Part shown: positions 25,485 to 45,707 of the stretch, piece by piece | Position numbering within the stretch: the first letter of the stretch is position 1 | Layout: every line of letters begins with the position of its first letter | DNA from: Gemmatimonadota bacterium | Lineage (GTDB): Bacteria > Gemmatimonadota > Gemmatimonadetes > JACCXV01 | Direction of reading: 5' to 3' | Length of the DNA: 64,000 nucleotides | Assembly (NCBI GenBank): GCA_036556205.1 | Contig: DATBJW010000064.1 | Location: 45,298 to 109,297 of the forward strand | Position numbers and translations under genes: made by a program | The notes under the pieces: generated by a model | Seen by the model: the letters and a program-made list of their open reading frames with translations, nothing else | Told to the model about the DNA's origin: nothing | Database searches by the model: none

Positions 25485-25817
25485 CAGCGGGGGACTCCTC
25501 GGGAGGAAATTGAGAGCGACGGGAAGCCGGAGCGGCGGTACGGGCCAGCAGTCTAGCCTCGACTCAGAGGGCTGTCAAACGCGACCGGCGACCGATTTCC
25601 GCTCACGGGCGCGGCGCTTCCGCCTGCCGCCCGGCCGCGCGCACCTGGGCTCCCGACGGTCGAGATTCTTCCTCCGCGGCCGGGGTTCGTCTTAGCTTTC
25701 GCTCCCGAACGCTCCCCGGGAGTGGTGGGTGGCCTTCCCCAGAGGTTCGGGTTCTTCCCTTCAGTCCGTGCGCTTCAAATCGACGCTCTTCAAGCGTCAG
25801 GCAGCCCGGAGGTGCGT

Positions 25818-27653: not shown

Positions 27654-27737
27654 CCCGACGGCTCGAGTCACGAGGAACAGGTGCCGGCCGGCGCCGGTGC
27701 CAAGAGGAGGGGCCCGCCCGGGTGCGGGCCCCTCGCG

Positions 27738-27754
27738 TTGGTACCGACCTTGCC
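27738..27754 (+). promoter_or_regulatory. Candidate sigma-54 (RpoN) -24/-12 promoter upstream of the gspE operon
   Basis: TTGGTAC-CGACC-TTGCC. GG at 27740-41 and GC at 27752-53 with the canonical 10-nt spacing. Matches TGGYAC-N5-TTGC. A sigma-54 activator gene lies at 41033-42373. Confidence 0.5.
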
Positions 27755-28288
27755 CGCCTGTCCGAAAAGGAGCCGGCGTGCAAGCTCCAGCGATCGAGCT
27801 GGGCCTTCCGGCCCCCTTGACGCCGGCGGAACTGATTGACCGTAACTGCTCGGCTCTCTTATAGTTAAAGTTCGCCGTCGCCACGCAGGCTCAGGCCCAA
27901 GACCTGGAACCCGGCCCAGCGCCGGTCCCCCGCGGGCGGACGGGAAAACGCGACGTTCCAGGGCAGGTGCGCCATCAAGGTCAGGCCTCCTTCAGACCGG
28001 CAGCCGCCGCGCGCGGCGGCGCCGAACGGCTCCCCGCTCCCCGGTTCTTCCGCCGACCGCGCGACCGGCCTCGAGGCCGCGCAGCCGGCCGGCACGACCG
28101 GAGGCCGGCTCTCGCTCACCCGCGTCAATGTAGACGAGGGGCTGATCCCCGAGCGGGACTTCCTGCGGGCCCTCGCGCGCCGGGACGGAACCCTGGTCCT
28201 GGAGCGGCTCGCCGAGGCACTGGTCGAGCCCGTCCCCACCAGCCTGCCGCTCCCCTACCTCGAGGAGTTCCTCATCGTCCCGCTCGAG

Positions 28289-29734
28289 ATGGACGAGCGC
28301 ACCGTCAAGATCGCCACGGCGCTCGATCTCGACCTCGCCACCGAGGACGAGATCGCGACCGCCTTCGAGCGTCGGGTGCGGCGCGTGTACGCTCCCAAGG
28401 CCGAGATCCTGGAGTCGCTGCGCCGCTTCTACGGCGCGGCGGGGGACGAGCTCGACGTGGTCGTGCAGGGCGGGTTCGACGCCGACGGCCAGGCCGAGGA
28501 GGACACGGACCCGGCCAACCTGGAGGACCTGGCCAACCAGGCGCCTGTGATCCGGCTCGTGAACTTCCTCATCCTCGAGGCCGCACGCCGGCGCGCCTCC
28601 GACATTCACTTCGAGGCGCTCGAGAACTCGCTCAAGGTGCGCTACCGGATCGACGGGCGGCTGCAGGAAGTGACCACGCCGCCCAAGAAGCTGCAGGCGG
28701 CGATCACCTCGCGCATCAAGATCATGGCCGAGATGAACATCGCCGAGCGGCGCCTGCCGCAGGACGGGCGCATCCGCCTGAAGGTGGCGGACAAGGATCT
28801 GGACCTGCGCATCTCGACGATCCCCACCCTGCACGGCGAGAGCGTGGTCATGCGCCTGCTCGACAAGGGCGGGGCGCGGCTGGATCTCGAGGAGCTGGGC
28901 ATGGACGTGGAGACCGTGGAGCGCTTCGTCCGGCTGATCGGCGCGCCGCACGGCGTGCTGCTCGTGACGGGGCCCACCGGCTCCGGCAAGACGACCACGC
29001 TCTACGCCGCCCTCGAGCGCCTGAACGCGCAGGAGAACAAGATCCTCACGGTCGAGGACCCGGTGGAGTACCAGCTGCCGGGCGTCAACCAGGTGCCCGT
29101 GAAGACCAAGATCGGGATGACCTTCGCGCGCGCGCTGCGCCACATCCTGCGCCAGGACCCCGACATCATCATGGTCGGCGAGATGCGGGACTTCGAGACC
29201 GCCGAGATCGCGATCCAGGCGGCGCTCACGGGCCATCTGGTCTTCAGCACGCTGCACACGAACGACGCGCCGGCGGCCGTGACGCGCCTGATCGAGATGG
29301 GGATCGAGGACTACCTGGTGGCGTCGGCGGTGAACGGCATCCTGGCCCAGCGGCTCGTGCGCACGCTGTGCCAGCGCTGCGCGGCCGAGGAGCCGGCCGA
29401 TCCCGAGGAGCTGGCACAGCTGCTGGGCGAAGGCGAGCGGCTGCGCGTCGAGCGCCTGCGCCAGGATCCCACCGTCGCGGCGCTGCGCGTCAAGCGGCCG
29501 GTCGGCTGTCCGGCCTGCGAGGGCACGGGCTACCGCGGCCGCACCGGCATCTACGAGCTGCTGGCGCTGGACGACGAGCTGCGCGCGAAGATCCCCGAGC
29601 ACGCGGCCGCCGGGCTCCGCGAGTCGGCGCGCGCGAAGGGCATGGTCACGCTGCGCGAGGACGGGCTCCGCAAAGTTGCCCGCGGGATCACCAGCGTGCA
29701 GGAAGTGCTGCGCGTCACCCGCGAGGAGGAGTGA
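28289..29734 (+). CDS. gspE: Type II secretion ATPase GspE. Coordinates from the first canonical ATG; the conserved N-terminal domain continues in-frame upstream to about 28020.
   Basis: Walker A (GPTGSGKTT), Asp box, Walker B, His box, and the tetracysteine zinc motif (CQRC...CPAC) typical of GspE. The upstream in-frame sequence encodes a GspE N1-like domain (RVNVDEGLIPERDFLRALA...LPLPYLEEFLIVPLE) but has no ATG/GTG/TTG. Confidence 0.85.
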   Translation: MDERTVKIATALDLDLATEDEIATAFERRVRRVYAPKAEILESLRRFYGAAGDELDVVVQGGFDADGQAEEDTDPANLEDLANQAPVIRLVNFLILEAARRRASDIHFEALENSLKVRYRIDGRLQEVTTPPKKLQAAITSRIKIMAEMNIAERRLPQDGRIRLKVADKDLDLRISTIPTLHGESVVMRLLDKGGARLDLEELGMDVETVERFVRLIGAPHGVLLVTGPTGSGKTTTLYAALERLNAQENKILTVEDPVEYQLPGVNQVPVKTKIGMTFARALRHILRQDPDIIMVGEMRDFETAEIAIQAALTGHLVFSTLHTNDAPAAVTRLIEMGIEDYLVASAVNGILAQRLVRTLCQRCAAEEPADPEELAQLLGEGERLRVERLRQDPTVAALRVKRPVGCPACEGTGYRGRTGIYELLALDDELRAKIPEHAAAGLRESARAKGMVTLREDGLRKVARGITSVQEVLRVTREEE

Positions 29735-30954
29735 TGGCGAGCTTCACCTACCGGGCCACGGACGCGCGCGGAGAGATCACGAACGGCGTCGTGCAGGGGC
29801 TCAACCTGGCGCAGGTCAAGGTGACCCTGCAGCGCCAGGGGCTCTTCCCGCTCGAGGTCACGGAGCGGGCCGCGGCCACCACGAACGGGGCCGGCGTGGG
29901 AGCCAGCCTGCGGCGATTGGGCTCGGCGCGGGCCGAGCTTCCCGCCTTCACGCGCGCGCTGGCGTCGTTTCTCGGTGCCGGCTTCCCGCTGGACCGCGCG
30001 CTCGGCATGTACGCAGACCTGGCCTCCCATCCGCGCTTCGACGCGGCCGTCAAGCACGTGCGGCGGGAGATCCAGGCCGGACGCAGCTTCGCGGGCGCGC
30101 TGGAGACGGAGCCCGGGCTCTTCGATCCGCTCTACGTGAGCACCGTGGGCGCCGCCGAACGCGCGGGCGCCCTGGAGGCGGCGCTCACGAGCCTGGCCGA
30201 CGCGCTCGAGGAGCGTCGCGAGCTGCGCCAGCAGTTGCAGGGGATCCTGCTCTACCCCGCGCTCATGGCTTGCGTGGGCGCGCTGGCCGTGGCCGTGCTG
30301 CTGATCTTCGTGATCCCGCGCTTCGTGGACATCCTGGAGGGCGGCGGGGCGGCGCTGCCCTGGGCCACGGCCGCGTTGCTGGGGGTGAGCCGCGTCGTGA
30401 CCCGCTTCTGGTGGCTCCTGGGGCTGATCGCGGCACTCGTCTTCGCGCTCGTCCACGGATACCTGAACACCTCCGAGGGCCGGCGCGCCTGGGACCGGCG
30501 CAAGCTGCGCCTGCCCGTCGCCGGGATCCTGATGCGCAAGCTCCTCGCGGCGCGGTTCTGCCGTACGCTGGGAACGCTGCTCCAGAACGGCGTGCCGCTC
30601 ACGAACGCCCTGCGGCTCACGGCCGAGACGCTGGGGAACACCGCCGCCGTGCAGGCCGTGCGCGACGTGCACGGTCGCGTCAAGGAAGGCGAGAGCCTGG
30701 CCTCGGCGCTCGGCCGTTTCGACGTGTTCCCGCCCGCGGTGCTGCGCATGATCGCCGTCGGCGAGGAGTCGGGGAAGCCCGAGGACATGCTGTTCAGGGC
30801 AGCTGAGTTCTACGAAGGCGAGACGCGGCGCAACCTGCGCACGCTGGTCGGGCTGGTGGAGCCGGCTCTGATCCTGCTGCTGGGGGGCGTCGTCGGATTC
30901 GTGGCGCTGGCCATGATCCAGGCCGTGTTCAGCATCAACGACGTGCCGCTGTGA
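29734..30954 (+). CDS. gspF: Type II secretion inner-membrane platform protein GspF
   Basis: Two GspF/PilC repeats with three TM segments. ATG overlaps the gspE stop (TGATG). The 995-aa ORF-track version starting at 27967 is a wrong-frame read-through. Confidence 0.9.
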   Translation: MASFTYRATDARGEITNGVVQGLNLAQVKVTLQRQGLFPLEVTERAAATTNGAGVGASLRRLGSARAELPAFTRALASFLGAGFPLDRALGMYADLASHPRFDAAVKHVRREIQAGRSFAGALETEPGLFDPLYVSTVGAAERAGALEAALTSLADALEERRELRQQLQGILLYPALMACVGALAVAVLLIFVIPRFVDILEGGGAALPWATAALLGVSRVVTRFWWLLGLIAALVFALVHGYLNTSEGRRAWDRRKLRLPVAGILMRKLLAARFCRTLGTLLQNGVPLTNALRLTAETLGNTAAVQAVRDVHGRVKEGESLASALGRFDVFPPAVLRMIAVGEESGKPEDMLFRAAEFYEGETRRNLRTLVGLVEPALILLLGGVVGFVALAMIQAVFSINDVPL

Positions 30955-30980
30955 AGGGCGCCCAACCCACGGAGAACGTC

Positions 30981-31415
30981 ATGGCCAGGCTGAGAGAGCG
31001 GCGGGGATTCACGCTGATCGAGATCATGGTGGTGGTCATCATCCTGGGACTGCTGGCGGTGCTGGTGGCGCCGAACGTGATCGACAAGCTCAGCGTGGCC
31101 AAGGACAAGACGGCGCGCACGCAGATCGAGCTCCTGGGGACCGCACTCGACAGCTACCGCCTGGACAACGGCACCTATCCGTCCACGCAGCAGGGGCTCG
31201 AGGCGCTCTGGGCGAAGCCGATCACGGCCCCCGAGCCGCGCAACTGGGCGGGCCCCTACCTCAAGAAGCACGTGCCGCAGGATCCCTGGGGCCACGCCTA
31301 CGTGTACCACAGCCCCGGCGAGCAGAGCCCCGACGGCTACGACCTGCTGTCCCTGGGAGCCGACGGCGCCCCGGGCGGCGAGGGTGAGGATGCCGACCTC
31401 AAGAGCTGGGAGTAG
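30981..31415 (+). CDS. gspG: Type II secretion major pseudopilin GspG
   Basis: Prepilin leader plus cleavage/methylation motif (RGFTLIEIMVVVIILGLLAVLVAPN). Conserved GspG body (KAKADIQ-like TARTQIELLGTALDSYRLDNGTYP...GPYL...DPWG..Y.Y..PG..GYDLLS.G.DG). Confidence 0.9.
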   Translation: MARLRERRGFTLIEIMVVVIILGLLAVLVAPNVIDKLSVAKDKTARTQIELLGTALDSYRLDNGTYPSTQQGLEALWAKPITAPEPRNWAGPYLKKHVPQDPWGHAYVYHSPGEQSPDGYDLLSLGADGAPGGEGEDADLKSWE

Positions 31416-31890
31416 CGCCCGCCGCCCCGCGCGCCGGCCGGCCGCGGGCTTCACGCTGCTCGAGATCCTGGTCACGATCGCGATCCTGGGCCTGGTGAGC
31501 GCCCTCGCGGCGCCGGCGATCGCGAGCCGGCTGCTGGAAACGCCGCTCGATCACTCGGCGCGGCTGCTGGCGGGAATGCTCCAGGAGGCGCGCGCGCGGG
31601 CCGCCGTGCGGGCCGAGCCGGTGGCCGTGCTCTGGTCGCCGGAGGGACGACGCTTCAGCCTGCGCGGCGCGAAGGGCGAGCACGTGCTGGCGCTGCCGCC
31701 GGCCGTGCGCGTCGAGGCGCGCGGTCTGGTGACGGGTCTGCCCGGCATGCCGGCGGGCCGCGAGGGAATCGTCTTCTTCCCGCTGGGGGGCTCGAGCGGC
31801 GGGTCCATCACGCTTCGCTCGAGCGCGGGGTCCGCCACGCTGCGCGCGGATCCGATCGCCGGGACGGTGCAAACCGTCCGCGCGCGATGA
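31384..31890 (+). CDS. gspH: Type II secretion minor pseudopilin GspH-like
   Basis: Prepilin-type N-terminal methylation motif (AGFTLLEILVTIAILGLVSALAAP). ~165 aa. Position after gspG. Confidence 0.7.
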   Translation: MRMPTSRAGSSARRPARRPAAGFTLLEILVTIAILGLVSALAAPAIASRLLETPLDHSARLLAGMLQEARARAAVRAEPVAVLWSPEGRRFSLRGAKGEHVLALPPAVRVEARGLVTGLPGMPAGREGIVFFPLGGSSGGSITLRSSAGSATLRADPIAGTVQTVRAR

Positions 31891-32342
31891 GCCGGCGCGC
31901 CTTCACGCTGCTCGAGGTGCTGGTGGCGCTCGCCATTCTGGGCCTCGGCATCACGAGCGCGCTGACGCTGATGGGCACCTCGAGCCGGGCCGCCGTCCGG
32001 GCCCGCGACGTGACCGAGGCCACGTTCGTCGCCGAGGAGGTCATGGAGGAGCTCTGCACGTTGAACGAGTCCGAGCTGCGCGCGAAAGCGCGCGAGACCG
32101 GCGACTGGGCCGAGCTCGAGCGGCGCGCCCAGCAGCGCCGTGAGGGACGCTCGAGCGCTCTGGAGCGCCTGCCCGAGCCCGACCGCTACGCGTACGCCGT
32201 GCAGGTCGTCGCGGACCGGAACGAGCCCGGACTCTACCGCGTGGACGTGGAGGTGACCTGGCCCGGGACCGGCGAATCGGGCCTGCAGCTCACGACCCTG
32301 CGGCGCTTCCCGGCGCCCGAGACCGGAGGGATGCCGCAGTGA
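31887..32342 (+). CDS. gspI: Type II secretion minor pseudopilin GspI-like
   Basis: RAFTLLEVLVALAILGLGITSAL N-terminal motif. 151 aa. Position. Confidence 0.7.
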   Translation: MSRRAFTLLEVLVALAILGLGITSALTLMGTSSRAAVRARDVTEATFVAEEVMEELCTLNESELRAKARETGDWAELERRAQQRREGRSSALERLPEPDRYAYAVQVVADRNEPGLYRVDVEVTWPGTGESGLQLTTLRRFPAPETGGMPQ

Positions 32343-33382
32343 AGCGCTCCCGGCGCCGCGGCGTGGCCCTGGTGCTCGCCCTCTGGGTCCTCGTCCTCTT
32401 CTCCTTCGTGGGCCTGGAGCTGAGCACCTTCTCGCGGGCCGACACGGGGGGCGCGCGCTACCTGAAGGAGCGCCTCCAGGCCTACTACCTCGCGCGCGGC
32501 GGCGTCGAGCGCGGGATCGGGCTGGTGAACGACTACTTCCGGCGTTACCCCGCGAACGCTCTCGCCGCCAAGAACCTGGGGCGCGATCTGAGCACGCTGA
32601 AGGAGTCGCGGCCTCCGCTCCTGACGTGGCTCGCCGACCGCGGCCTGGCCCGCGTGCCGCTCGGCGCGGGCAGCTACAGCCTGCGCTTCGAAGACCTCGC
32701 CGCTCGCGTGAACGTGAACCGCACCGATCCGCTCGTGCTGGCGAACCTGATCCGGCTCACCGGTGTTGACGACGCCCGCTCGCGTCAGCTCGCCGACGCG
32801 GTTCTGGACTGGGTCGACGCCGACGACCAGCACCGCCCCCAGGGAGCCGAGCGGGACTGGTACGAGCGCCACCGCCTCCGCCCCCCGCGCAACGGCCCCG
32901 TGACGCAGCTCGAGGAGCTGCTCCTCGTGAAAGGCATGACGCGCGACATCCTCTTCGGCGGCGAGCGGACCAAGGGGTTGGTCCCCTTCCTCACGACCGA
33001 GGGACCGGGCAAGATCAACGTGAACTCGGCACCGGCCGAAGTGCTGCTGGCCGTCCCAGGGCTGGATCAGGGGACGGTCTCGCGCATCCTGAGCACGCGG
33101 CGCACGCGCTCGCTGCGCAGCCTGGCCGAGGTTCTGGGCGCCGATCCCGAGGCGCAACTCGGCCGCAATCCCGTGCTCGGCCTCCTCTCGTTCGACACGA
33201 CCGAGATGGCCGTGGAGGCGCAGGGGATGCTGGCCGGCGCGCCGGCCCGCAGCGTGGTGCGCGCCACGGTCGGCGTCATGCCCGCGGGGCTCGTCGTGCG
33301 CGGCTGGCGCGACGACTTCCCGTCGGGACTGGCGCTGGCTCCCGCATCGTCCGCCGCCGACTCAACCGGTCCGCAATCGTGA
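32339..33382 (+). CDS. gspK: Type II secretion minor pseudopilin GspK-like
   Basis: N-terminal RGVALVLALWVLVLFSFVGLELS. Size ~347 aa. Helix-hairpin-helix-like segment (INVNSAPAEVLLAVPGLDQGTVSRIL) is typical of GspK. Confidence 0.7.
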   Translation: MKRSRRRGVALVLALWVLVLFSFVGLELSTFSRADTGGARYLKERLQAYYLARGGVERGIGLVNDYFRRYPANALAAKNLGRDLSTLKESRPPLLTWLADRGLARVPLGAGSYSLRFEDLAARVNVNRTDPLVLANLIRLTGVDDARSRQLADAVLDWVDADDQHRPQGAERDWYERHRLRPPRNGPVTQLEELLLVKGMTRDILFGGERTKGLVPFLTTEGPGKINVNSAPAEVLLAVPGLDQGTVSRILSTRRTRSLRSLAEVLGADPEAQLGRNPVLGLLSFDTTEMAVEAQGMLAGAPARSVVRATVGVMPAGLVVRGWRDDFPSGLALAPASSAADSTGPQS

Positions 33383-34812
33383 AGCGCTGCCTGGGTATCG
33401 AGATCGGCCGCGCGTTCGCGGCGATCTGCGAGGTCGCCCCGGACGGCGAGGGCCCCGGCCGGCATCGCCTCGCCCGGCACGCCTTCGCCGAAGGCGAGCT
33501 GCCCACGCCCGACCAGCTGGCCGACACCTGTCTGCAGCTGGCGCTCGAAACCGGGATCCGCGAGCGCGCGGCCGTGCTGGCGCTCGCCCGCTCGCTCACC
33601 TACACGAAGACCGTCCAGCTGCCGCCGCTTCCGAACGACGACCGGCTGAAGCTGGTCACGGTCCAGCCCGAGCGGTTCTTCCCGGTCTCCGACCGGGCTC
33701 TCGTATGCGACCTCGAGCCGGGCACGAACGGTGGACCCTCGGTCGCCCATGCCACCGAGGCCGATCAGCTCGAGGCCGTGGTCGAGGCGCTCCAGAGTCG
33801 CGGCTTCCGCATCCGCGCCGTGCTGCCGGCTTCAGCGGCCCTGCAGCGCGCGGCGCTGCGGGGCATCCCGGGGCTGTCGGACGCCAACTGGCTGCTCGTG
33901 CGGCCCGAGGCGGGAGGGATCACCGCCAACGCCTTTCGGGCCCGCAGCCTGCGCGTCTCGCGCCGCATGGAGAACTTCAGCGGGGATCCCGAAGGGGCGT
34001 TCCGCGAGATCGCGCGCACCGTAGCCAGCGCCTTCGAGGATGGGGCGGCGGTCAGCGAGGTGCGGTGGTCCGGTTGGAACGGGCTCCCCGACGCGGTCCG
34101 CCGCGCGGGCGCCGCGAGCCTGCCGGTGCCGGTGCGGGACCTCTCGGAGCTGCCGGTCGAGAGCGAAGGGCTCGTCGCGTACGGCGCCGCGCTGGCGGGT
34201 CTCGAGGAGGCGCCGCGGCCCGACCTGCTGCCGCCCGCCGTTCGGGCGCGCCGGCGCCAGCAGGGGCGCTGGATCACGATGGCCTGCGGCGCGCTGGCGC
34301 TGCTGGCCGCCCTGGCGCTCATCTGGGCCCTGGGGCAGCGGCAGGATCGCCAGCTGGCCCAGCTCGAGGCGGAGACCCGCAAGGCGCGGGCCGGTGCGCT
34401 CGCCGCGGCCGACGCCCGCGACGCGCTGAAAGCGCTCGAGGACCGCATCGCCGCCGTCCAGGGCCGCATGGAGCAGCGCGCGGCCTGGCTGAGGATGATG
34501 AAGGAGATCAGCTCGGCGCTGCCGACGAGCGCCTGGATCGGAAGCCTCTCCATCGCCCCGGACGGCGATGTGAGCCTCTCGGGATACGCCACGACGGCCT
34601 CGGCCCTCGTTCCCGCTTTGCAGGCCACCGACGCCCTGGACCGCGTCGAGTTCGCCGCTCCCGCCACGCGCGCCAACATCGGGCGCCGCGAGCTGGAGGC
34701 GTTCAACATCCGCGCGGTCCTGCAGGGGAGCCCGGCCGACAGCTCCCGCGCGGCCAATCCGCAGGGGACCGTGGAGAACCCCGACGCCGGCCTGGTCGGA
34801 GACGAGGAGTGA
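33379..34812 (+). CDS. gspL: GspL-like inner-membrane assembly protein: cytoplasmic actin-like (PilM-like) domain, one TM helix, periplasmic PilN/GspL-like domain
   Basis: Cytoplasmic domain 1-300. TM (WITMACGALALLAALALIWAL). Coiled coil, then a periplasmic ferredoxin-like domain. Architecture equals GspL, or a PilM-PilN fusion. Confidence 0.65.
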   Translation: MKRCLGIEIGRAFAAICEVAPDGEGPGRHRLARHAFAEGELPTPDQLADTCLQLALETGIRERAAVLALARSLTYTKTVQLPPLPNDDRLKLVTVQPERFFPVSDRALVCDLEPGTNGGPSVAHATEADQLEAVVEALQSRGFRIRAVLPASAALQRAALRGIPGLSDANWLLVRPEAGGITANAFRARSLRVSRRMENFSGDPEGAFREIARTVASAFEDGAAVSEVRWSGWNGLPDAVRRAGAASLPVPVRDLSELPVESEGLVAYGAALAGLEEAPRPDLLPPAVRARRRQQGRWITMACGALALLAALALIWALGQRQDRQLAQLEAETRKARAGALAAADARDALKALEDRIAAVQGRMEQRAAWLRMMKEISSALPTSAWIGSLSIAPDGDVSLSGYATTASALVPALQATDALDRVEFAAPATRANIGRRELEAFNIRAVLQGSPADSSRAANPQGTVENPDAGLVGDEE

Positions 34813-34816
34813 GGGC

Positions 34817-35407
34817 GTGATCTGGCTGCGTCTCGACAAGGGCCAGCTGGCCCTCGTGCTCTTCTCCGTGGCGCTCTTCGTGGCCGCCATCGTCGTGCTG
34901 CTGCTGCCGGCACCCGCGCTGCCCGAGCCGGCACCTCTCACCTCGCGCGACGGATCCCCCCCCGCGTTCGAGGCCCCGCTCCCTTCGATGGCCAACGACC
35001 CGGCCGGACCGCTCGTGGACGCCGACCCGTTCGACGCCACCCGCCAGCCCCCGGCCAGGCGCAGGACGACGCTCGGCGCCGAGGGCGGCGACGAGCAGGC
35101 GCTGCCGGCGGCCTTCACCCTGCTCGGCACCGTCGTGACCGGAAACGGCCGCGACATGGCCGTGATCCGGGCCAACCCCGCCCTTCCCACGGGCGCCACG
35201 TACCGCGTCGGCGACGAGCCCCTGCCCGGCTATCGCGTGACGAGCATCCGGCGCGACGGCGTCACGATCTCCGGCAACGGTCAGTTGTTCGAGCTCGAGA
35301 TCCAGAAGACCGCGGACTTCCACATGCCGCAGGGCCTGCAGGGCGCGGGCTACCAGGGCGACTTCGGCGACACCGACGAGGACCAGGAAGAAGGGATGAA
35401 CCAGTGA
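34817..35407 (+). CDS. GspC/PilP-like inner-membrane protein of the type II secretion system (secretin-interacting HR-type domain)
   Basis: GTG start. N-terminal TM (LALVLFSVALFVAAIVVLLL), Pro-rich linker, then a small beta domain (FTLLGTVVTGNGRDMAVIRANP...TYRVGDEPLPGYRVTSIRRDGVTI) resembling the GspC HR / PilP fold. Confidence 0.55.
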   Translation: MIWLRLDKGQLALVLFSVALFVAAIVVLLLPAPALPEPAPLTSRDGSPPAFEAPLPSMANDPAGPLVDADPFDATRQPPARRRTTLGAEGGDEQALPAAFTLLGTVVTGNGRDMAVIRANPALPTGATYRVGDEPLPGYRVTSIRRDGVTISGNGQLFELEIQKTADFHMPQGLQGAGYQGDFGDTDEDQEEGMNQ

Positions 35408-36288
35408 CGGCCCGCGAGCGGCGCACCGTGCGGCTGGGTCTCGTGGCCGCCGCCATGATCCTCCTCTACGTGCTGGCGCTGGACCCGTACCTGACGGCCC
35501 GCGCGAAGACGCGTGACCTGATCGAGCAGCAGCAGGCCCAGCTCTCCCGGCTGGTGGCCCTGGACCGGTCGCTGCCGATCTACCGCCGGCGCCTGCAGGC
35601 GGCGCAGGCCACCTGGGACGCCGAGGTCCGGCCGCGGCTCGTGGCCGGGGACGTGCCCGCCGTCGCCGCTTCGACCCTTTCCAACGAGGTGCGACGCGTC
35701 GCCGCCCAGAGCTTCCTCGACGTCGAGCGCGAGAACGTGCTGGCCGCGACCGAGAAGGACGGCCTCACCGCGATCCCCGTGCAGTTCTCGCTGCGGGGCG
35801 ACATCTACGGCCTGCGGGACTTCCTGGCCGCGCTCGAGTCCACGCGTACGTTCCTGAACCTGCGGGAGCTGCGCGTCACGGCGATCACGGGCGGATTCAA
35901 CCAGGTCCTTCCCGTCACGGCGGCTCCGCTCCAGATGACGGTCACGGTGGAGGGCTACCTGGGCGGGGCGCCGGCCGCGGGTGAGCCGGCGGCCCCGCAG
36001 CCGCCGGGCGCAGCTGCGCCGGCCGGCGCCGAGGGAACGACCGTCACCCCGAGCCCACCGGCCGCGGAGCCTGCTCCGACGAGCTCCGTCGAGCCCGGCC
36101 CGCCGAGCGGCGTCCCTGCCCCTGCCGGGCCTTCGCAGGAGGGAGCGCGGGCGGAACCGGGCGCGGCCCCGCGAGCGGGCCTCGGCGGCGCACCCGAGCG
36201 GCCGGCCGGGGCGCCGGCCGGGGCGGACGTCCGTCGCATCCCGCGCGGCGGCGCGGCCGCGCCCGCTCCGGGGGACGCGCGCCGATGA
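35404..36288 (+). CDS. gspM: GspM/PilO-like type II secretion inner-membrane protein with an extended Pro/Ala-rich C-terminal tail
   Basis: N-terminal TM (LGLVAAAMILLYVLAL), coiled coil, ferredoxin-like periplasmic domain (LTAIPVQFSLRGDIYGLRDFLAALES...LRELRV). ~110-aa low-complexity tail. Confidence 0.6.
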   Translation: MTARERRTVRLGLVAAAMILLYVLALDPYLTARAKTRDLIEQQQAQLSRLVALDRSLPIYRRRLQAAQATWDAEVRPRLVAGDVPAVAASTLSNEVRRVAAQSFLDVERENVLAATEKDGLTAIPVQFSLRGDIYGLRDFLAALESTRTFLNLRELRVTAITGGFNQVLPVTAAPLQMTVTVEGYLGGAPAAGEPAAPQPPGAAAPAGAEGTTVTPSPPAAEPAPTSSVEPGPPSGVPAPAGPSQEGARAEPGAAPRAGLGGAPERPAGAPAGADVRRIPRGGAAAPAPGDARR

Positions 36289-36407
36289 GGCTCCCCGAGG
36301 GACCTGCGCCGGCCCACGCGGGTCGGAACGATCCGGGCGCGCGCATGCACGCGAACGGCAACCCCGGCGAGTCGGGCGAACGAGCGGATCGCCAACGCGG
36401 AGAGACG

Positions 36408-38900
36408 ATGACGCGAGACCTCCCGGACATTCCCAGCGGCCACGGCCGTCGCCGGCCGTGCGTCGCTGCGCGCCGGGCCCTTCTCGCGGCGCTGTTCCTC
36501 GTCTCGGCGCTGGCCGCTCCGGCCGTCGCTCCCGCCCGCGCGCAGGAGCCCGGCGTGCGCCGGGAGGGCGGGCTGGTCTACTTCAACCTCCAGAACGTGG
36601 ACATCCGCTCGGCCCTGGACACGATCAGCCAGGTGCTGGGGATCAGCTACGTGCTCGGCGGAAGCGTGCCCACGGGCACGCCGATCACGATCAGCACCGC
36701 GGCCGGGATCCCCCTCGAGAAGGTGCCCGACCTGCTGGACTCGGTCCTGCGCACCTACAACCTGGCGCTCATCAAGACCGGGGACGTCTTCACGGTCATC
36801 CAGGCCGGCGAGGGCCAGCCGGCGGGGGAAGTGACGCGCACCCAGGTTTACGTCTACTACCTGCGGAACGCCAACGCCGTGGACGTTGCGAACGTGCTCT
36901 CGCAGCTCTTCCAGGGATCAGCTCCCGCCGGCGGGTTCGTGCGCCGCAGCCCTCCTGCGCAGGGCCTCTCGCGGCGCCTCGAGCAACAGAACCTACCCTA
37001 CGCGGACACGCAGCAGAACCCCTTCGGCATGGGCGGGGTGAACGACCAGGTCCCGCAGGCGACCGAGGCGAACACGCCCGTGCGCGTGATCCAGGGCGAG
37101 CTCGTCGGCCAGACGTCGATCGTGCCGGACGAGACCACGAACAGCCTGATCATCAAGACCGCGCCCGAGAACTACCCTTCGATCCAGGAGACGATCGCCA
37201 AGCTCGACATGCGGCCCGCGCAGGTGCTAATCGAGGTCACCATCGCCGAGATCACGCTGGACAAGTCGATGCAGTTCGGCATCGAGTACCTGCTCAGGGG
37301 CAAGACCGAGATCGGCGGCGAGACCGTGCGCGGCGAGCTCGAGCTCCAGAGCCCGACTCCGATTGTGGGCGGCCTGCGCGCGCACGTCTTCGACAGCGGG
37401 AACGTGGACGTGGTCCTGCGGGCGCTGGCCGCGGACGCCCGCGTCAACGTGCTCTCGACGCCGCGCGTGCTCGCCGTCAACAACCACGAGGCTCGGATCC
37501 TGATCGGCTCCGAGGTTCCCTTCGTTCAGTTCTCGCGCGCGACCACGGGCGAGGCCATCGACCAGGTCGTGCAGTACCGCAACGTGGGCCTGGAGCTCAC
37601 CGTCACGCCGCGCATCAACCCTGACCGCTACATCAGCATGGACCTGCTGCAGCAGGTCTCCGCGCTCACGAACGACGTCCTATTCGACGCTCCCATCATC
37701 ACGACGCGGGAGGCGCAGACCTCACTGGTGGTAGGTGACAACCAGACGATCGTGCTGGGCGGGTTGATGGAAGACCGCAAGGAGAAGCGCCGCAACGGGA
37801 TTCCCATCCTGAAGGACATTCCGGTCCTGGGCTGGCTCTTCGGCACCACGTCCGAGCGCACGGTGAAGACCGAGCTGGTCCTCACCCTCACGCCCTACAT
37901 CGTCGAGTCGGACCAGGAGCTGCAGCGCCTGCGCCAGGAGATCGAGTCCCACAGCGAGCTCTACCAGAAGGAGCTCGAGAAGCGCCGCGAGGAGGGGCAC
38001 TTCGTGCCCGGCGACCTGACTCCCGAGCGAATGCAGTCGGCTCCCGTCGCGCCGGCGGGACCGGCACCAACGCCAACGCCGCTTCCGGCCGACACGACCA
38101 CGCTCGCGCCGCGCGACACGGCGCGGGCGGCCGCCATGCCGGCCATGGGCGAGCCGGCCCAGGCGCCCGTGGTCGGCGCAGAGCCGGAGCCCCGCGTCAG
38201 CAGCCTGGAGCGAGGGCCGGAGATCAGCCAGCCGGCTCCCGAGGGCGGCGGGGGGAATGCCGATGCTCCCTCGCCTTCGACCTACGGCGCGCCCTCGTCG
38301 GCGGGAGAGACTCCGGAGGTGAATCAGCCCGCGGCGCCGAGTCCCCCGCCGGCGGAGGCCGTCGAGCCGACTCCAGACGAACCGAGCGGCGAGCAGGTCG
38401 AGACCTTCGAGCCGACTCCGGGCGAGCCGGGTGCCGAGCAACAGGTCGAGACGTTCGAGCCGCCTGCCGGCGAACCGGGCGGCGGGCACGTGGAGACGTT
38501 CGAGGCGCCCGCCGCTGAACCGGGCGGCGGGCACGTGGAGACGTTCGAGGCGCCCGCCGGCGAACCGGGCGGCGAAGCCCGGCAGACGCCACCGTCCCCC
38601 GCCGAGCCGGGAGGCGCCCCTGAGACGCCAGAGCCGCCCCTCGCCGAGCCGGGCGGCCCGAGCTTCCGGGTGCAGGTCATGGCCGTCCCCGATCAGCGCG
38701 CGGCCGAGGACGAAGCCGACCGGCTGCGCGGCATCCTCGGACCGGAGCTCCCGGTCTACGTGGAGCGGGAGCGCCCCTTCTACAAGGTCCGGGTGGGCGA
38801 CTTCCCCACCAAGGACGAAGCGCACGCCGCGGTCGTCAGGCTGCGCGGGCTGGGCTACAACGACGCCTGGACGGTCACCGTTCCGGGCTCGGGCGGCTAG
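36408..38900 (+). CDS. gspD: Type II secretion secretin GspD fused to a C-terminal SPOR domain through a repetitive linker
   Basis: ATG at 36408; signal peptide (ALLAALFLVSALAAPAVAPARAQEP). N0-N3 domains, then the secretin core (VLSTPRVLAVNNHEARILIGSEVPFV...NVGLELTVTPRIN...TIVLGGLMED...IPILKDIPVLGWLFG...VLTLTPYIV). Then a ~230-aa Pro/Glu-rich linker with 4x VETFEAPAGEPGGGH repeats. Then a SPOR-like domain (FRVQVMAVPDQRAAEDEADRLRG...PFYKVRVGDFPTKDEAHAAVVRLRGLGY). Confidence 0.85.
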   Translation: MTRDLPDIPSGHGRRRPCVAARRALLAALFLVSALAAPAVAPARAQEPGVRREGGLVYFNLQNVDIRSALDTISQVLGISYVLGGSVPTGTPITISTAAGIPLEKVPDLLDSVLRTYNLALIKTGDVFTVIQAGEGQPAGEVTRTQVYVYYLRNANAVDVANVLSQLFQGSAPAGGFVRRSPPAQGLSRRLEQQNLPYADTQQNPFGMGGVNDQVPQATEANTPVRVIQGELVGQTSIVPDETTNSLIIKTAPENYPSIQETIAKLDMRPAQVLIEVTIAEITLDKSMQFGIEYLLRGKTEIGGETVRGELELQSPTPIVGGLRAHVFDSGNVDVVLRALAADARVNVLSTPRVLAVNNHEARILIGSEVPFVQFSRATTGEAIDQVVQYRNVGLELTVTPRINPDRYISMDLLQQVSALTNDVLFDAPIITTREAQTSLVVGDNQTIVLGGLMEDRKEKRRNGIPILKDIPVLGWLFGTTSERTVKTELVLTLTPYIVESDQELQRLRQEIESHSELYQKELEKRREEGHFVPGDLTPERMQSAPVAPAGPAPTPTPLPADTTTLAPRDTARAAAMPAMGEPAQAPVVGAEPEPRVSSLERGPEISQPAPEGGGGNADAPSPSTYGAPSSAGETPEVNQPAAPSPPPAEAVEPTPDEPSGEQVETFEPTPGEPGAEQQVETFEPPAGEPGGGHVETFEAPAAEPGGGHVETFEAPAGEPGGEARQTPPSPAEPGGAPETPEPPLAEPGGPSFRVQVMAVPDQRAAEDEADRLRGILGPELPVYVERERPFYKVRVGDFPTKDEAHAAVVRLRGLGYNDAWTVTVPGSGG
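38395..38585 (+). repeat. 45-bp tandem repeat inside gspD (two perfect copies plus two degenerate copies; 15-aa repeat VETFEAPAGEPGGGH)
   Basis: gaaccgggcggcgggcacgtggagacgttcgaggcgcccgcc occurs twice in tandem, flanked by diverged copies (gagccgggtgccgagcaacaggtcgagacgttcgagccgcctgcc). Confidence 0.8.
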
Positions 38901-38911
38901 GCCCGGCCCGC

Positions 38912-39598
38912 GTGCGGAGCCTCTTGCTTAGAGAGGCGGCAGCCTGGAAGACGCTCCACGGCGCGCGTGCGCTCGATCCCGCGCGATCGGCGCGCGGCTT
39001 CACGCTGATCGAGGTCGCGGTCGCGCTCGCGATCCTGGGGCTCATCACGGTCACGATCTACATGTCGCTCCGGAGCGCTCTCGACAACGTGGATCACCTC
39101 CGCGAGAGCCAGGAGCCCTATCAGCGCGGGCGCGTGACGCGGTCGTTCCTCGCGAGCGCGCTGCGCTCTGCGTCCCTGTTCACGGGGCTGCCCGAGGACG
39201 GCTTCGCCGCGGTGGACAGCTCGCACGCCGGGGTCCCGCGCGACGAGCTCACCTTCGTGGCCCTCTCTCCGCCGGGGGCGCGCGGGAGCCGCATGCAGGT
39301 CCACCTCTACGTGGCGGATTCGGCCGGCGGCTCGTTCCTGAAGCTCGACGTGCGTCCGGTCGGCGTGGCTGACTCCACGCCACCCTTCACGAGCTACACG
39401 CTGTCGAACGCCGTGCGCGGGCTCGACCTGAGCTACCTCGCCGCGGCGGCCGACGACCGCACGATCTGGCTCGACCACTGGGATTCGCTGATCCGCCTGC
39501 CGTACGCCGTCCGCATCACGTTCCTGCCCGCCGGCGTGCCGGATCCCCTGTGGGAGACCCCCCTGGTGACCCAGCTCCCCGCCGGCCGCATGCTCTGA
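38912..39598 (+). CDS. gspJ: Type II secretion minor pseudopilin GspJ-like
   Basis: Prepilin cleavage/methylation motif (RGFTLIEVAVALAILGLITVTIY). ~228 aa. The C-terminal beta-rich domain is typical of GspJ. Confidence 0.65.
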   Translation: MRSLLLREAAAWKTLHGARALDPARSARGFTLIEVAVALAILGLITVTIYMSLRSALDNVDHLRESQEPYQRGRVTRSFLASALRSASLFTGLPEDGFAAVDSSHAGVPRDELTFVALSPPGARGSRMQVHLYVADSAGGSFLKLDVRPVGVADSTPPFTSYTLSNAVRGLDLSYLAAAADDRTIWLDHWDSLIRLPYAVRITFLPAGVPDPLWETPLVTQLPAGRML

Positions 39599-39834
39599 GG
39601 CGGCGTCCCCACCCTCACCCTCTCCTACCGCGCTAGGCCGTTCGGCGGATGGCGCTCTGCGCCTCTCGCTGGATGCGCCGCACCCGCGCGCGCGGCACCT
39701 TCGGACCGCGGCGACGCGTGGCCTCCCGCCGAGCGGCGGAGGCTCCCCACACCCCGTGAGCCGCGCTCTCAACGAGCGCCCGCCCCCACCCAGGCCGCCG
39801 CCCGCGGTGGCCGTGCCCACAAGGAGGTTGGCCC

Positions 39835-41046
39835 ATGAGACGCGTGCTCGCGCTGCTCTCGCTGTCGGCTCTCGCCGCGTGCCGGGACGCACCCGGCCCC
39901 CTCGCTCCCGGCGACGAAGCGGCGGACGCGAGCCTCTCGGACCAGGCCTCGGACTCCCTGTCGCCCACGCTCGACGCCAGCGCCGAAGGCGTCCTGCCGG
40001 GTCGCTGGATCGTGACGCTCAAGCCCGGGGTGGCCTCTCTCACCGCGGGCACCAGCCTCGGTCTGCGCCCCGACTACGTCTACACGCGGGCGCTCAACGG
40101 CTTCGCGGTTCGGCTCTCCGATTCGGCGGCGCGCGCTCTTTTGCGGGACGCGCGCATCCTCTCGATCGAGCCCGACGGGATCGCCACCGCGACGACGACG
40201 GAGACGAGCGCGCCCTGGGGGCTCGACCGCATCGACCAGCGCAAGCTCCCCGTCGACACCCAATTCCACTACACGGCCACCGGGCAGGGTGTCACGGCCT
40301 ACGTGATCGACACCGGCATCCGGTTCGACCACGCCGAGCTCTCGGGTCGCGCCGTGAGCCTCGTGGACGAGGTCGACGGAGGCTCCGCGGACGACTGTCT
40401 CGGCCACGGCACGCACGTCGCCGGAACGCTGGGCGGGGAGACCTACGGCGTGGCCAAGGACGTGAAGCTGGTCGCCGTGCGCGTGCTGGACTGCAACGGG
40501 TTCGGCACCTGGAGCCAGGTGATCGCCGGTATCGACGCCGTGATCGCCGACCACCAGGCCGGCGTGCCGGCCGTCGCCAACCTCTCGCTGGGCGGGCCCA
40601 AGCGGGCGTCGGTCAACACCGCGATCAAGAACCTGATCGGCGACGGCGTCACGACGGTCGTCGCGGCCGGCAACGGCGACATCTTCGGGTTCCCCCAGAA
40701 CGCCTGCAACGTCTCGCCCGCGGGTGTGCGCCTCGCGATCACCGTGGGCGCCACCGACCAGACCGACACCAAGGCCCCGTGGTCGAACTTCGGCAACTGC
40801 GTGGACTGGTTCGCGCCGGGCGTGGACATCCTCTCGGCCTGGGTCTCGGGTCCCCACGACACGTTGATCCTGAGCGGCACCTCGATGGCCGCACCCCACA
40901 CCGCCGGCGTAGCCGCCCTGTTCCTGCAGGGCAGCCCCTCGGCCTCCCCAGCGGCGGTGCGCAGCGCGCTCTTCGCCAAGACGACGAAGGGCATCGTGAA
41001 GGCCTCGAGCACGGCCACGAACCACCTGCTCTTCACGAAGTACTAG
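39835..41046 (+). CDS. Subtilisin-like serine protease (peptidase S8, proteinase-K-like) with an I9 propeptide and a lipoprotein signal
   Basis: Signal plus lipobox (LSLSALAAC). Inhibitor_I9 prodomain (RWIVTLKPG...). Catalytic triad motifs: D (AYVIDTGI), H (HGTHVAGT), S (GTSMAAPH). RBS AAGGAGG upstream. Confidence 0.9.
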   Translation: MRRVLALLSLSALAACRDAPGPLAPGDEAADASLSDQASDSLSPTLDASAEGVLPGRWIVTLKPGVASLTAGTSLGLRPDYVYTRALNGFAVRLSDSAARALLRDARILSIEPDGIATATTTETSAPWGLDRIDQRKLPVDTQFHYTATGQGVTAYVIDTGIRFDHAELSGRAVSLVDEVDGGSADDCLGHGTHVAGTLGGETYGVAKDVKLVAVRVLDCNGFGTWSQVIAGIDAVIADHQAGVPAVANLSLGGPKRASVNTAIKNLIGDGVTTVVAAGNGDIFGFPQNACNVSPAGVRLAITVGATDQTDTKAPWSNFGNCVDWFAPGVDILSAWVSGPHDTLILSGTSMAAPHTAGVAALFLQGSPSASPAAVRSALFAKTTKGIVKASSTATNHLLFTKY

Positions 41047-42373
41047 TCGAAGGCGCCGGCGGCGCCCCGTCGCAGGCGCCGCCGGGCTCGTCCCTCCCTC
41101 GCGCGCCATCGTCGGCGGCGGCGTCCACGCCCGCCGCCGGCGCCTCGTTTGTCAGCTCCCCCTCCGCGGCGTCCGACCCGTCGTCGAGATTGCCCGGGTC
41201 CTCCGCGCCGACTTCCGGCGCCCCTTCCCGCTCGTCCGGCTCGTCGTCATCGGCGGAAGTGCCGCGCGGGACGGGCACGCCCAGCCGGCGGGCCTCGCGC
41301 CGGACCTTGTTCCGTTCCCAGCCCAGGAGCGCCCCGGCCCGGGTCAGGTTGCCGCGCGCGATCGCCAGCACGCGCCGCAAGTGGTGGCGGAGCACCGTGT
41401 CGGCTCGCAGGTCGGGTGGTCCGTCGTCCTCGTGCATGGCCCAGACCTTCAGGTCCCCGCGCTCGATCCAGCACGAGCGGGCCCGCAGGAAACCGATGCG
41501 AAGCGTCTCGCGCAGCTCGCGCACGTTTCCCGGCCAGGCGTAGGCCAGAAACCAGGATTCCGTCGCCGCGTCCCAACCACGCACGTCCTTGCCGTAAGCC
41601 TCGGCGAACTCGCGCATGAACGTCTCGGCCAGTAGCAGGATGTCCTCGCCCCGGTCGCGCAGAGGCGGCAGCGACAGCTCGATCCCGCTCAAGCGGTAGT
41701 ACAGGTCGCGCCGGAAGCGCCCCTGCGCCACGAGCCGGCCCAGGTTGCGGTTCGTGGCGCTCACGAACTGGACGTTCACGTCCACCGCGCTCGAGGAGCC
41801 CACCGGTCGCACCTGACGGCTCTCGGACACGTAGAGCAGCTTGGCCTGGACGCGGGGGCTGATCTCGGTGATCTCGTCCAGGAACACGGTCCCGCCGCTG
41901 GCCTCGACTATGAGTCCGCGCCGCTCGCTCCGCGCGTCGGTGAATGCTCCCCGCGCGTGGCCGAACAGCTCGCTCTCGAAAAGGGTGGCCGGGATGTTGG
42001 GGCAGGGCACCTCGATGAAGGGCCGAGCCGCGCGGGGGCCTATCGCGTGGTAGAGGCGGGAGAGGAAGCTCTTCCCCGTGCCGGTGGGACCCGTGAGGAG
42101 GAGGTTGATCGAGTAGGCCGAGAGCGACCTCAGCGTGCTCTTGACCTCGAGCATGCCCGGCGAGGAGCCCACGACCTTGTCGAGCGCGTCGGGGACGCCG
42201 ATCCTGTCACCTGCCTCGCGATAGACTTCCGCGTGGGGGCTTGCCGTCGGGTGTCCCAGCACGCCTCTCCCTCCCGATCCCGGGCTCGCGGACGGACGAC
42301 TCAAGCTCCCAACCGGGTCTCCCGCCCCTGCACGACGCGTGCCGAGCAGCAGAGGAGACCGGGCGAAAGGCAT
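41033..42373 (-). CDS. Sigma-54-dependent transcriptional activator (bEBP) without a receiver/sensor domain and with an acidic C-terminal tail
   Basis: AAA+ sigma-54 interaction domain: Walker A (LLTGPTGTGKS), GAFTDA variant (GAFTDARSER), Walker B (GTVFLDEI), arginine fingers, C-terminal Fis-type HTH (LRRVLAIARGNLTRAGALLGWERNKVRR). Only ~70 low-complexity residues precede the AAA+ domain. ~85-aa Asp/Glu-rich tail. Confidence 0.85.
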   Translation of the reverse strand: MPFARSPLLLGTRRAGAGDPVGSLSRPSASPGSGGRGVLGHPTASPHAEVYREAGDRIGVPDALDKVVGSSPGMLEVKSTLRSLSAYSINLLLTGPTGTGKSFLSRLYHAIGPRAARPFIEVPCPNIPATLFESELFGHARGAFTDARSERRGLIVEASGGTVFLDEITEISPRVQAKLLYVSESRQVRPVGSSSAVDVNVQFVSATNRNLGRLVAQGRFRRDLYYRLSGIELSLPPLRDRGEDILLLAETFMREFAEAYGKDVRGWDAATESWFLAYAWPGNVRELRETLRIGFLRARSCWIERGDLKVWAMHEDDGPPDLRADTVLRHHLRRVLAIARGNLTRAGALLGWERNKVRREARRLGVPVPRGTSADDDEPDEREGAPEVGAEDPGNLDDGSDAAEGELTNEAPAAGVDAAADDGARGRDEPGGACDGAPPAPSTSTS

Positions 42374-42525
42374 GGCGAGAGTGACGAGTCACGCTCCTGA
42401 CCCGGCGTTCAAAGCCGAGCGTGAGCGGCGGCACTGGTTCGGGAGGCCGGTCCGCGCCGCGCGGGGGGACTGACGGGCAGGTGACACACGGGCGACTGGA
42501 GCGCCGCCCGGGCGGGCCAGAGGGA

Positions 42526-42840
42526 TCAGGCCCCTTGCATCTCCTCGCGGATGGCCTGCGCGAGGTCGCCGTGGCCGTGCGCCAGGGCGCTGGCGAGGCC
42601 GGAACCGAAGGCCAGCTGCGCCGCCTCCGACTCTCCCAGCAAGTGATGGGCGCGCCCTTTCATGCGGTAGGCGGCTCCCACGTCGCCCCCGGGCAGCAGG
42701 GCCACGTAGCGGTCGAGATACGCCAGGGCGCGGGCCGGCTCCCCGGCGTTCAGGAGCTCGTTGCCGGCCATGATCTGCGGCATGGGCTCGTCGGGGTTCT
42801 CGTCGGCCAGGCTCAGGACGGTCTCGAGTCGCGAGCTCAT
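42526..42840 (-). CDS. Small TPR-like helical protein
   Basis: ~105 aa. ATG at 42840 overlaps the stop of the upstream gene (ATGA). Helical repeats (ARALAYLDRYVALLPGG...AAYRMKGRAHHLLGESEAA). Confidence 0.5.
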   Translation of the reverse strand: MSSRLETVLSLADENPDEPMPQIMAGNELLNAGEPARALAYLDRYVALLPGGDVGAAYRMKGRAHHLLGESEAAQLAFGSGLASALAHGHGDLAQAIREEMQGA

Positions 42841-45655: not shown

Positions 45656-45707
45656 GAGCCTCCGGGAGGGGAAGAGGGCCAGGCAATATCGCGCGGAAGG
45701 GAGGCCT

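Follow-up and report, generated by a model that had tools for sequence, protein, structure and literature searches.

Here we describe a type II secretion system (T2SS) operon, and the sigma-54 activator gene standing beside it, in a 64,000-nucleotide stretch of DNA from an uncultured Gemmatimonadota bacterium (contig DATBJW010000064.1, positions 45,298 to 109,297), hereafter called the window. The G+C content of the window is 70-75%, the locus is surrounded by genes of the housekeeping type (rho, ruvX, permeases, a class IV aminotransferase and a tRNA gene), and the gene order around the T2SS operon is found again in relatives. On account of these surroundings and this recurring order we take the locus to be chromosomal, and a reading of it as a mobile island was dropped. 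Proteins identical or nearly identical to those of the locus belong to metagenome bins of Gemmatimonadota: GspE matches P0121, annotated as Gemmatimonadota, at 100% identity, and the activator matches P0001, also at 100%. Close relatives were found via protein searches and contig look-ups. The regions upstream of gspE were compared between the window and five orthologous loci, L166 to L170 (GspE 80-89% identical), of which L166 is the closest, while the activator was compared across six loci: the window, L081, L083, L084, L171 and L172. L167 lies on the same contig as L081, and L170 comes from the same bin as L083. GspE scans of genome and metagenome contigs gave relatives that were at most 56% identical among the matches listed, none of them with the same layout. 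Which genes are present, where the motifs lie, and whether they are kept or lost across these loci is read directly from the DNA.

The operon consists of eleven contiguous plus-strand genes, gspE-F-G-H-I-K-L-C-M-D-J, identified with Pfam and NCBIfam profiles. It opens with the ATPase gene gspE (27974..29734), whose product carries an MshEN-type N-terminal domain (Pfam T2SSE 1.8e-141 and MshEN; TIGR02533 641.7 bits against a cutoff of 630.25), and proceeds through the inner-membrane platform protein gene gspF (29731..30954; Pfam T2SSF 3.8e-56), the major pseudopilin gene gspG (30951..31415; Pfam T2SSG 3.4e-41 and N_methyl) and the minor pseudopilin genes gspH (31384..31890; Pfam N_methyl and GspH 2.9e-6), gspI-like (31887..32342; N_methyl, with T2SSI at 0.0056 below cutoff) and gspK (32339..33382; Pfam T2SSK_1st 5e-15 and T2SSK). 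These are followed by a gene for a gspL-like assembly protein of the PilM/PilN type (33379..34812; C-terminal Pfam PilN 1.5e-8 and a weak PilM-like NCBIfam match), a short gspC-like gene (34817..35407; T2SSC 4.7e-5 and GspC_delta 5.7e-9, both below cutoff), gspM (35404..36288; T2SSM_b 1.9e-9, and NF040576 at 81.6 bits, over the cutoff of 60), the secretin gene gspD (36285..38900; Secretin 1.8e-46, Secretin_N, N0 and SPOR 8.9e-13), for which the best NCBIfam match is GspD at 305 bits, under the cutoff of 351, and a gspJ-like minor pseudopilin gene (38912..39598) with N_methyl as its only Pfam match and a full-length, sub-threshold NCBIfam match to GspJ (4e-6). Among the platform proteins GspM is over its cutoff, the L-like protein has a PilN domain only and the C-like protein stays under its cutoffs. 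These caveats aside, we consider the domain assignments unambiguous from sequence profiles, and the hallmark components of a T2SS are present: E, F, G, minor pseudopilins and an N0-bearing secretin. No Peptidase_A24 match indicating a prepilin peptidase (GspO/PilD) was found in any scanned open reading frame of the window, and this enzyme may be encoded elsewhere in the genome.

In keeping E, F, G, H/I/J/K, L/M/C and D within one operon, the locus resembles the canonical Gsp systems such as Klebsiella Pul, Vibrio Eps and Xanthomonas Xps. It differs from them in a gene order that opens with E and F, a PilM/PilN-like GspL, a GspM of the 'b'/XpsM type, a C-like protein that is short and under the family cutoffs, a gspE that apparently begins at ATC, a SPOR domain on the secretin (window and L171 only) and the lack of a prepilin peptidase in the window. 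The C-terminus of the secretin (38660-38880) consists of a long acidic, proline-rich repeat linker followed by the C-terminal SPOR (peptidoglycan-binding) domain; this combination is confined to the window and L171 (10383-12881), its closest relative, and the secretin orthologues in L081, L083, L084 and L172 are 596-654 residues long, with neither linker nor SPOR domain. Sublineages also differ in how the C-like gene and gspM are arranged: the window (34817-36288) and the P0123 contig have L-C-M-D, and L167 (16931-18363), L083, L084 (16718-18306), L172 and L168 have L-M-C-D.

Facing the 3' end of the operon lies the gene for a bacterial enhancer-binding protein (bEBP), a sensor-less sigma-54 activator (41033..42262, minus strand; Sigma54_activat, PF00158, 3.1e-55). 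Alignment of the upstream regions across loci revealed a conserved GTGCTGG behind a strong Shine-Dalgarno sequence, and for this reason we place the start at the GTG at 42262, which gives a protein of 409 residues instead of the 446 residues counted from 42373. With this start, ~28-30 residues precede an AAA+ domain with a GAFTDA loop, followed by a putative Fis-type helix-turn-helix (HTH), visible by alignment, and an acidic tail; no receiver, GAF, PAS, V4R or other sensory domain was found ahead of the AAA+ domain. GAFTDA is invariant in 14 orthologues and occurs also in ordinary NtrC-family proteins, and as an argument against sigma-54 function it was rejected, given that the variant is common and listed among the functional loop variants (PMC4641369). 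The C-terminus gave no HTH_8 Pfam match at E < 0.01, and its segment aligns to the NtrC-family HTH, where the N, T, A, L, G and R positions do not vary. The tail comprises 84 residues, with 22 D/E against 5 K/R, and the tails of the orthologues are likewise acidic but vary in length and sequence. The family is a tight clade, its 17 clusters being 72-100% identical and generic activators at most 47%, and no NCBIfam equivalog cutoff is reached by the protein, with the PspF models at 199 and 167 bits versus 444 and 529. No PspA/IM30 or HrpV-like gene was seen in any locus context examined. We predict from these features that the bEBP is a genuine sigma-54 activator without a sensor domain.

An earlier note on this DNA had described a complete T2SS cluster apparently under the control of sigma-54, with a PspF/HrpS-type activator, and its observations were largely correct, while its interpretation is supported only partly. 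The eleven contiguous secretion genes that it listed are confirmed by the profile searches, and so are the opposite-strand bEBP lacking an input domain, the acidic tail that it put at ~85 residues, the absence of a prepilin peptidase from the window, and a lipoprotein subtilisin of family S8 between apparatus and activator, for which propeptide, catalytic triad and lipobox were all recovered. Its gene labels hold as an inventory, but those of J, the C-like and the I-like protein remain below curated cutoffs. Likewise, the assignment to the PspF/HrpS type is right for the domain architecture of the activator and wrong for membership by sequence, the protein being far below the PspF cutoffs and having no PspA or HrpV gene nearby.

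The case for sigma-54 control had been built on a sigma-54-like -24/-12 motif, TTGGTACCGACCTTGCC, at 27738..27754 on the plus strand (GG at 27740-27741, GC at 27752-27753), the function of which is doubtful. The near-consensus element is itself real and exceeds a chance-level match: TGGTACCGACCTTGCC (27739-27754) is the only TGGYAC-N5-TTGCH match in the window, where 0.03 are expected, and the ranking that the earlier note had proposed as a check places it, within the window scan, as the top-scoring site at 14.3 bits with an approximate sigma-54 matrix. The element does not lie exactly upstream of gspE as had been stated; it is ~210 nt before the probable start and 535 nt before the first ATG, a sigma-70-type promoter stands in between, and it falls within the 3' half of a hairpin stem. 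This long, GC-rich and terminator-like hairpin without a U-tract (27674..27762, plus strand) begins ~20 nt past the stop codon of a gene for a BNR/sialidase-like protein, has arms formed by the inverted repeat 27695-27717 / 27724-27746, and folds as RNA at -65.7 kcal/mol (z = -2.86), with 0 of 200 shuffles equally stable. It is not a REP-like repeat, as no further copies were found within the window.

Comparison with related loci offers little encouragement for the motif. Its counterpart in L166 is TGGTCCCGAGCTTGCT, a degenerate version at 8.8 bits that keeps GG and GC at the correct spacing, and the identity of 13/17 is about neutral when set beside the 0.60-0.71 of third codon positions. No counterpart scoring 3.3 bits or more is present in the gspE upstream regions of L167, L168 or L170, and the one in L169 reaches 3.3 bits; L167 and L170 are without the motif though their genomes retain the activator. 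On the coding strand of the orthologous operons, no sigma-54-like site was found in L167 (complete) or L168 (nearly complete), and the partial operons of L084 and L172 contain scattered weak matches of 7-11 bits at positions that are not shared. The bEBP-binding repeats that had been anticipated upstream of 27738 were not found either: no enhancer-like site (TGWCR-N5-7-YGWCA, one mismatch allowed) is present 40-260 nt 5' of the motif in the window, a region made up mostly of BNR coding sequence and hairpin. The motif is most likely a by-product of the hairpin behind the BNR gene, and at most a promoter that arose recently and in this sublineage only. The dedicated sigma-54 control that had been proposed for the T2SS is not supported by this comparison. 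We note that in L166 a palindrome, TGACGGTTTTTGCGACA (TGACG-N7-CGACA, 9730-9746), which resembles the activator gene's candidate enhancer described below, abuts the degenerate motif and is the sole such match in the 14.7-kb locus, and that the window has the hairpin in this place. Consensus sigma-54 promoters do exist in this clade, since L081 contains TTGGTACGGCGATTGCT, a very strong sigma-54-type motif of 19.3 bits (1237-1253, minus strand), with an HSP70-family gene ~130 nt downstream of it.

Between the motif at 27738-27754 and gspE, 82 nt 3' of the former, is a sigma-70-type promoter, TTGACC-N18-TATAGT (27836..27865, plus strand), with a predicted start near 27872. The pattern was found once, against none in 50 shuffles, and its identity to L166 is 26/30, to be compared with the values given above for the motif and for third codon positions. 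Boxes of this type lie upstream of gspE in five of the six loci (window, L166, L167, L169 and L170), the sixth being cut by a contig end. The whole window holds five such matches, each of them upstream of a correctly oriented gene, rho included, and the organism clearly uses this promoter type. The housekeeping sigma-70-type box at 27836-27865 is most likely the main promoter of the T2SS operon. In L167 (9790-9830) and L169 (9745-9780), GTTTACACG is found together with TGTCAAACGGAC, the latter in one or two copies, 5' of the sigma-70-type boxes of gspE; these shared sequences could be an operator.

Transcription from this box would give a ~100-nt leader that closes with a conserved Shine-Dalgarno-like sequence and, at 27974, an in-frame ATC. 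The corresponding leader and translation-initiation block (GGCGGACGGGAAAACGC ... AGGTGCGCCATCAAGGTC; 27937..27990, plus strand) is conserved in 4 loci and identical to L166 at 45/54 positions, with AGGTG as its Shine-Dalgarno-like sequence. The first canonical in-frame ATG of gspE occurs at 28289, and the N-terminal homology of GspE reaches back to about 27985. Upstream of the conserved N-terminal segment (RLSLTRVNVDEGL) no in-frame ATG, GTG or TTG is available in the window, L167, L169 or L170, and the sole start candidate is the conserved in-frame ATC, located 5-6 nt past a Shine-Dalgarno-like AGGTG/GGAGG (27974 in the window, 9986 in L166, 9962 in L167, 9773 in L170 and 9839/9842 in L169, where the Shine-Dalgarno match is weaker). 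The start of gspE is probably this conserved, non-canonical ATC/AUC, which would explain why gene callers report GspE lengths of 502 to 675 residues. An RNA element in the leader was considered and rejected: Rfam returned nothing at the gathering threshold or at E up to 10, the fold is not more stable than shuffles (z = +1.72), and the consensus fold shows little covariation.

The only conserved candidate for a sigma-54-type promoter in the neighborhood is ahead of the bEBP gene itself. There, ~67 nt upstream of the GTG, the element TCGGCACGCGTCGTGCA (GGCACG-N4-GTGC; 42345-42329, minus strand) is present in all six activator loci, the other five versions being TGGGCACGTCTCGTGCG, TGGGCACGCGTTGTGCT, TGGGCATGCCTCGTGCT, CGGGCACGTCTCGTGCA and TGGGCACGTCTCGTGCT. 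Across these loci it stays 55-80 nt ahead of the start codon, within intergenic DNA that has otherwise diverged. The element fits GG-N10-GC with a perfect GGCACG, doubles as a palindrome, GCACG-N3-CGTGC, and belongs to a pattern that is rare across all loci retrieved. A second GGCACG-N4-GTGC, found upstream of a BNR gene in L084 (5220-5233), was dismissed as a hairpin following a stop codon. A search for sigma-54 sites ahead of the S8 gene, the BNR gene and the FG-GAP operon found none. Further upstream, a candidate enhancer (a putative upstream activating sequence), TGTCACCTGCCCGTCA, occupies 42471-42486 on the minus strand, and a one-mismatch copy, AGTCGCCCGTGTGTCA, follows at 42482-42497 with a 5-nt overlap; in the window the copies are 141-152 nt upstream of the -24 element. 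The pattern TGWCR-N4-8-YGWCA has one match in the 64-kb window, at 42471-42497, and the 16-bp element TGWCR-N6-CGTCA occurs once in each of the six loci, 78-141 nt upstream of the bEBP promoter. An unbiased k-mer enrichment (exact 6-8-mers) for the enhancer returned nothing, and the 16-bp element is a post hoc motif inasmuch as only the degenerate pattern revealed it. Since a GG/GC element together with an upstream 16-bp element is the usual enhancer-dependent layout, this suggests that the bEBP gene may itself be sigma-54-dependent, plausibly via autoactivation, and we regard it as fairly likely that the conserved element is a sigma-54 promoter.

We consider it moderately likely that the locus combines an ordinary T2SS operon, expressed from a sigma-70-type promoter, with an orphan activator, probably acting on its own gene. 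The T2SS operon would be transcribed from TTGACC-N18-TATAGT, the bEBP would probably be made from its own sigma-54 promoter, through autoactivation or under another activator, and the remaining targets of the bEBP would lie outside the window and the loci compared. The promoter used, the autoregulation and a role of the neighboring protease as cargo are what we infer from the features described. Several points weigh against this account. The comparison loci all come from one clade, as their GspE identities show, and are not independent, and the sigma-54 matrix is an approximate one drawn up from the published consensus. The palindromic element of the bEBP gene could be an operator, the similar pattern in L084 having proved to be a hairpin. 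The adjacency of bEBP and T2SS, which is kept in L084 with a different flank, hints at a functional tie that the account does not explain. Finally, the motif upstream of gspE is statistically unusual, intergenic and correctly oriented in a locus that contains a sigma-54 activator, and a lineage-specific dual promoter, with a distal sigma-54 and a proximal sigma-70 component, is conceivable if improbable.

With regard to the activator gene, the conserved element might be a palindromic operator, either for a repressor or for the HTH of the bEBP itself, in a manner resembling PspF autorepression at a sigma-70 promoter; we judge this unlikely but credible. The palindrome is perfect in four of the six loci, and the same letter pattern at L084 5220-5233 is a mere hairpin. 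Against an operator, the G just 5' of the palindrome is invariant and yields GG at -25/-24, while the mirror position is never C. The changes that break the palindrome in L083 and L084 affect bases that sigma-54 promoters tolerate, the base following GC is A or T in five of six loci, and both the spacing to the start codon (55-70 nt) and the upstream 16-bp element at -80 to -140 match the usual sigma-54 layout.

An indirect tie, in which the bEBP is linked functionally to the T2SS by a route other than a promoter at gspE, appears quite unlikely. In the window, L081, L083, L084, L171 and L172, the bEBP gene and the 3' end of the operon meet tail to tail, and the bEBP adjoins the T2SS in six of seven informative related loci; in the remaining one, L168, another gene follows the operon and no activator lies directly downstream, which speaks against such a tie. 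On its 5' side, an array of genes for an FG-GAP/dockerin-like protein, a cohesin-like lipoprotein and a 104-aa TPR protein (42529..45913, minus strand; identified with Pfam and tblastn of L081 proteins) runs co-directionally with the bEBP gene and stops just ahead of its promoter. In 5 loci this array neighbors the bEBP. L084 lacks it but keeps the bEBP-T2SS adjacency despite its different far flank, and thereby mildly favors a tie of the bEBP to the T2SS over one to the FG-GAP/cohesin-like/TPR genes. The link could take several forms. The bEBP might control substrate or envelope-stress genes elsewhere, as in a PspF-type response to secretin stress, and in architecture it matches PspF and HrpR/S, both of them under the control of partner proteins; PspA/IM30 and HrpV-like genes are absent from every context, however. 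It might work with the small TPR protein as partner or antagonist, the gene for which lies conserved directly 5' in those five loci and the product of which shows a weak likeness to a type III secretion system (T3SS) chaperone, SctY (24 bits, below cutoff). Alternatively, convergent transcription into the 3' end of the operon might modulate the T2SS: the S8 and bEBP genes converge with 3' ends that overlap by 14 bp (41033-41046), as read directly from the sequence. No terminator-like site was found between these two genes. As all loci belong to one clade, the adjacency may be inherited order, and inherited gene order within one clade is a sufficient explanation of it.

That the adjacent sensor-less bEBP switches on the T2SS operon, and perhaps the S8 gene, from 27738-27754, with the sigma-70 box secondary or basal, is distinctly unlikely in our view. 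In its favor are the uniqueness and rank of the motif in the window, the GG and GC retained with correct spacing in L166, the palindrome that abuts the motif there and resembles the candidate enhancer, and the bEBP beside the T2SS in most informative loci. There is also a precedent, RpoN-dependent T2SS expression having been reported from RNA-seq in Plesiomonas shigelloides (PMC9743648). These are outweighed, in our reading, by the loss of the motif from L167-L170, including genomes that keep the bEBP, by conservation relative to L166 that is not above neutral, by its embedding in a hairpin stem without an enhancer-like site within 260 nt upstream, by the lack of any sigma-54-like site shared among orthologous operons, and by a better-conserved sigma-70-type promoter 82 nt downstream. 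Improbable, too, is a combined version in which the sublineage of the window and L166 has had its self-driving bEBP recruit a distal sigma-54 promoter, so that T2SS and protease are switched by a partner-relayed signal.

Known regulatory systems provide partial models for such an activator. As in the PilS/PilR systems of Pseudomonas, Myxococcus and Geobacter, a sigma-54 activator lies beside type IV filament genes, which are homologous to the T2SS. PilR carries a receiver domain, is paired with a kinase and acts at the promoter of the pilin gene; the bEBP in the window has neither receiver nor kinase, and unlike the PilS/PilR targets, gspG in the window is preceded by neither intergenic space nor a sigma-54 site. 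HrpR/S control a T3SS, PspF responds to secretin stress, and PspF is made from a sigma-70 promoter. The bEBP resembles PspF and HrpR/HrpS in consisting of an AAA+ domain and an apparent C-terminal HTH only, behind a short N-terminus. It differs from PspF in its score (199 against 444 bits), in its acidic tail of variable length and in the apparent sigma-54 promoter of its own gene, and from both in that no PspA or HrpV-like antagonist is found nearby. Single-component sigma-54 activators at the edge of a secretion cluster are further represented by VasH/Sfa of type VI secretion systems (T6SS) and by DVUA0100, the sigma-54 activator in the T3SS cluster of Desulfovibrio vulgaris (PMC4641369). 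In the VasH/Sfa and DVUA0100 systems the structural operons have conserved sigma-54 promoters, whereas the orthologous T2SS operons here do not. For T6SS, T3SS and type IV pili, activators inside the cluster are already a familiar finding, and the present locus is best filed as a T2SS operon and an orphan activator, each of a known kind.

Among the genes flanking the operon, two encode candidate cargo. The S8 subtilase lipoprotein with an I9 propeptide (39835..41046, plus strand; Peptidase_S8 4.9e-35 and I9; lipobox LAAC) has the catalytic triad D159/H191/S350 (DTG159, HGT191, GTSMA348). Orthologues are found in L171 (72% identical) and in L084 (54%), where the gene is placed between gspD and gspJ, and the protease is present in three of the six loci (window, L171 and L084) and missing from L081, L083 and L172. 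The gene is thus accessory, accompanying the operon's 3' end in a part of the genomes. Because it is repeatedly tied to the operon end, at two positions, it stays a reasonable cargo candidate, and the lipoprotein is a plausible secreted or surface-displayed T2SS substrate. Pullulanase (PulA), the classical T2SS substrate, is a lipoprotein too. The secreted BNR/sialidase-like protein (25722..27653, plus strand; weak BNR/BNR_2 Pfam matches), encoded directly 5' of the T2SS operon, has an equivalent in the same position in L166 (7770-9593) and L170 (7710-9590), is missing in L167 and L169, and is a possible T2SS substrate outside the core. At a greater distance, an AT-rich intergenic region at 58735-58830 (local G+C 0.64), in which TTGCCA(A/T)T occurs about six times, is probably an operator array; a Fic/HTH gene at 57394-58755 on the minus strand bounds it on one side and a CBM9/DUF5916 gene at 58944-61247 on the other.

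Our findings document a conserved T2SS locus in soil Gemmatimonadota. They also offer a caution, as a near-consensus sigma-54 match can emerge within a GC-rich hairpin, and they flag the probable ATC start of gspE as a conserved feature that leads gene callers to truncate GspE. Were the recruitment of a distal sigma-54 promoter in the sublineage of the window and L166 true, a T2SS would for the first time have a sigma-54/bEBP circuit dedicated to it. A sigma-54-driven T2SS, if true, would add type II secretion to the surface machines known to be linked to sigma-54 (flagella, type IV pili, T3SS and T6SS), and this extension would come in a phylum with almost no genetics. In summary, the orphan activator of this locus now has a testable promoter and enhancer prediction.

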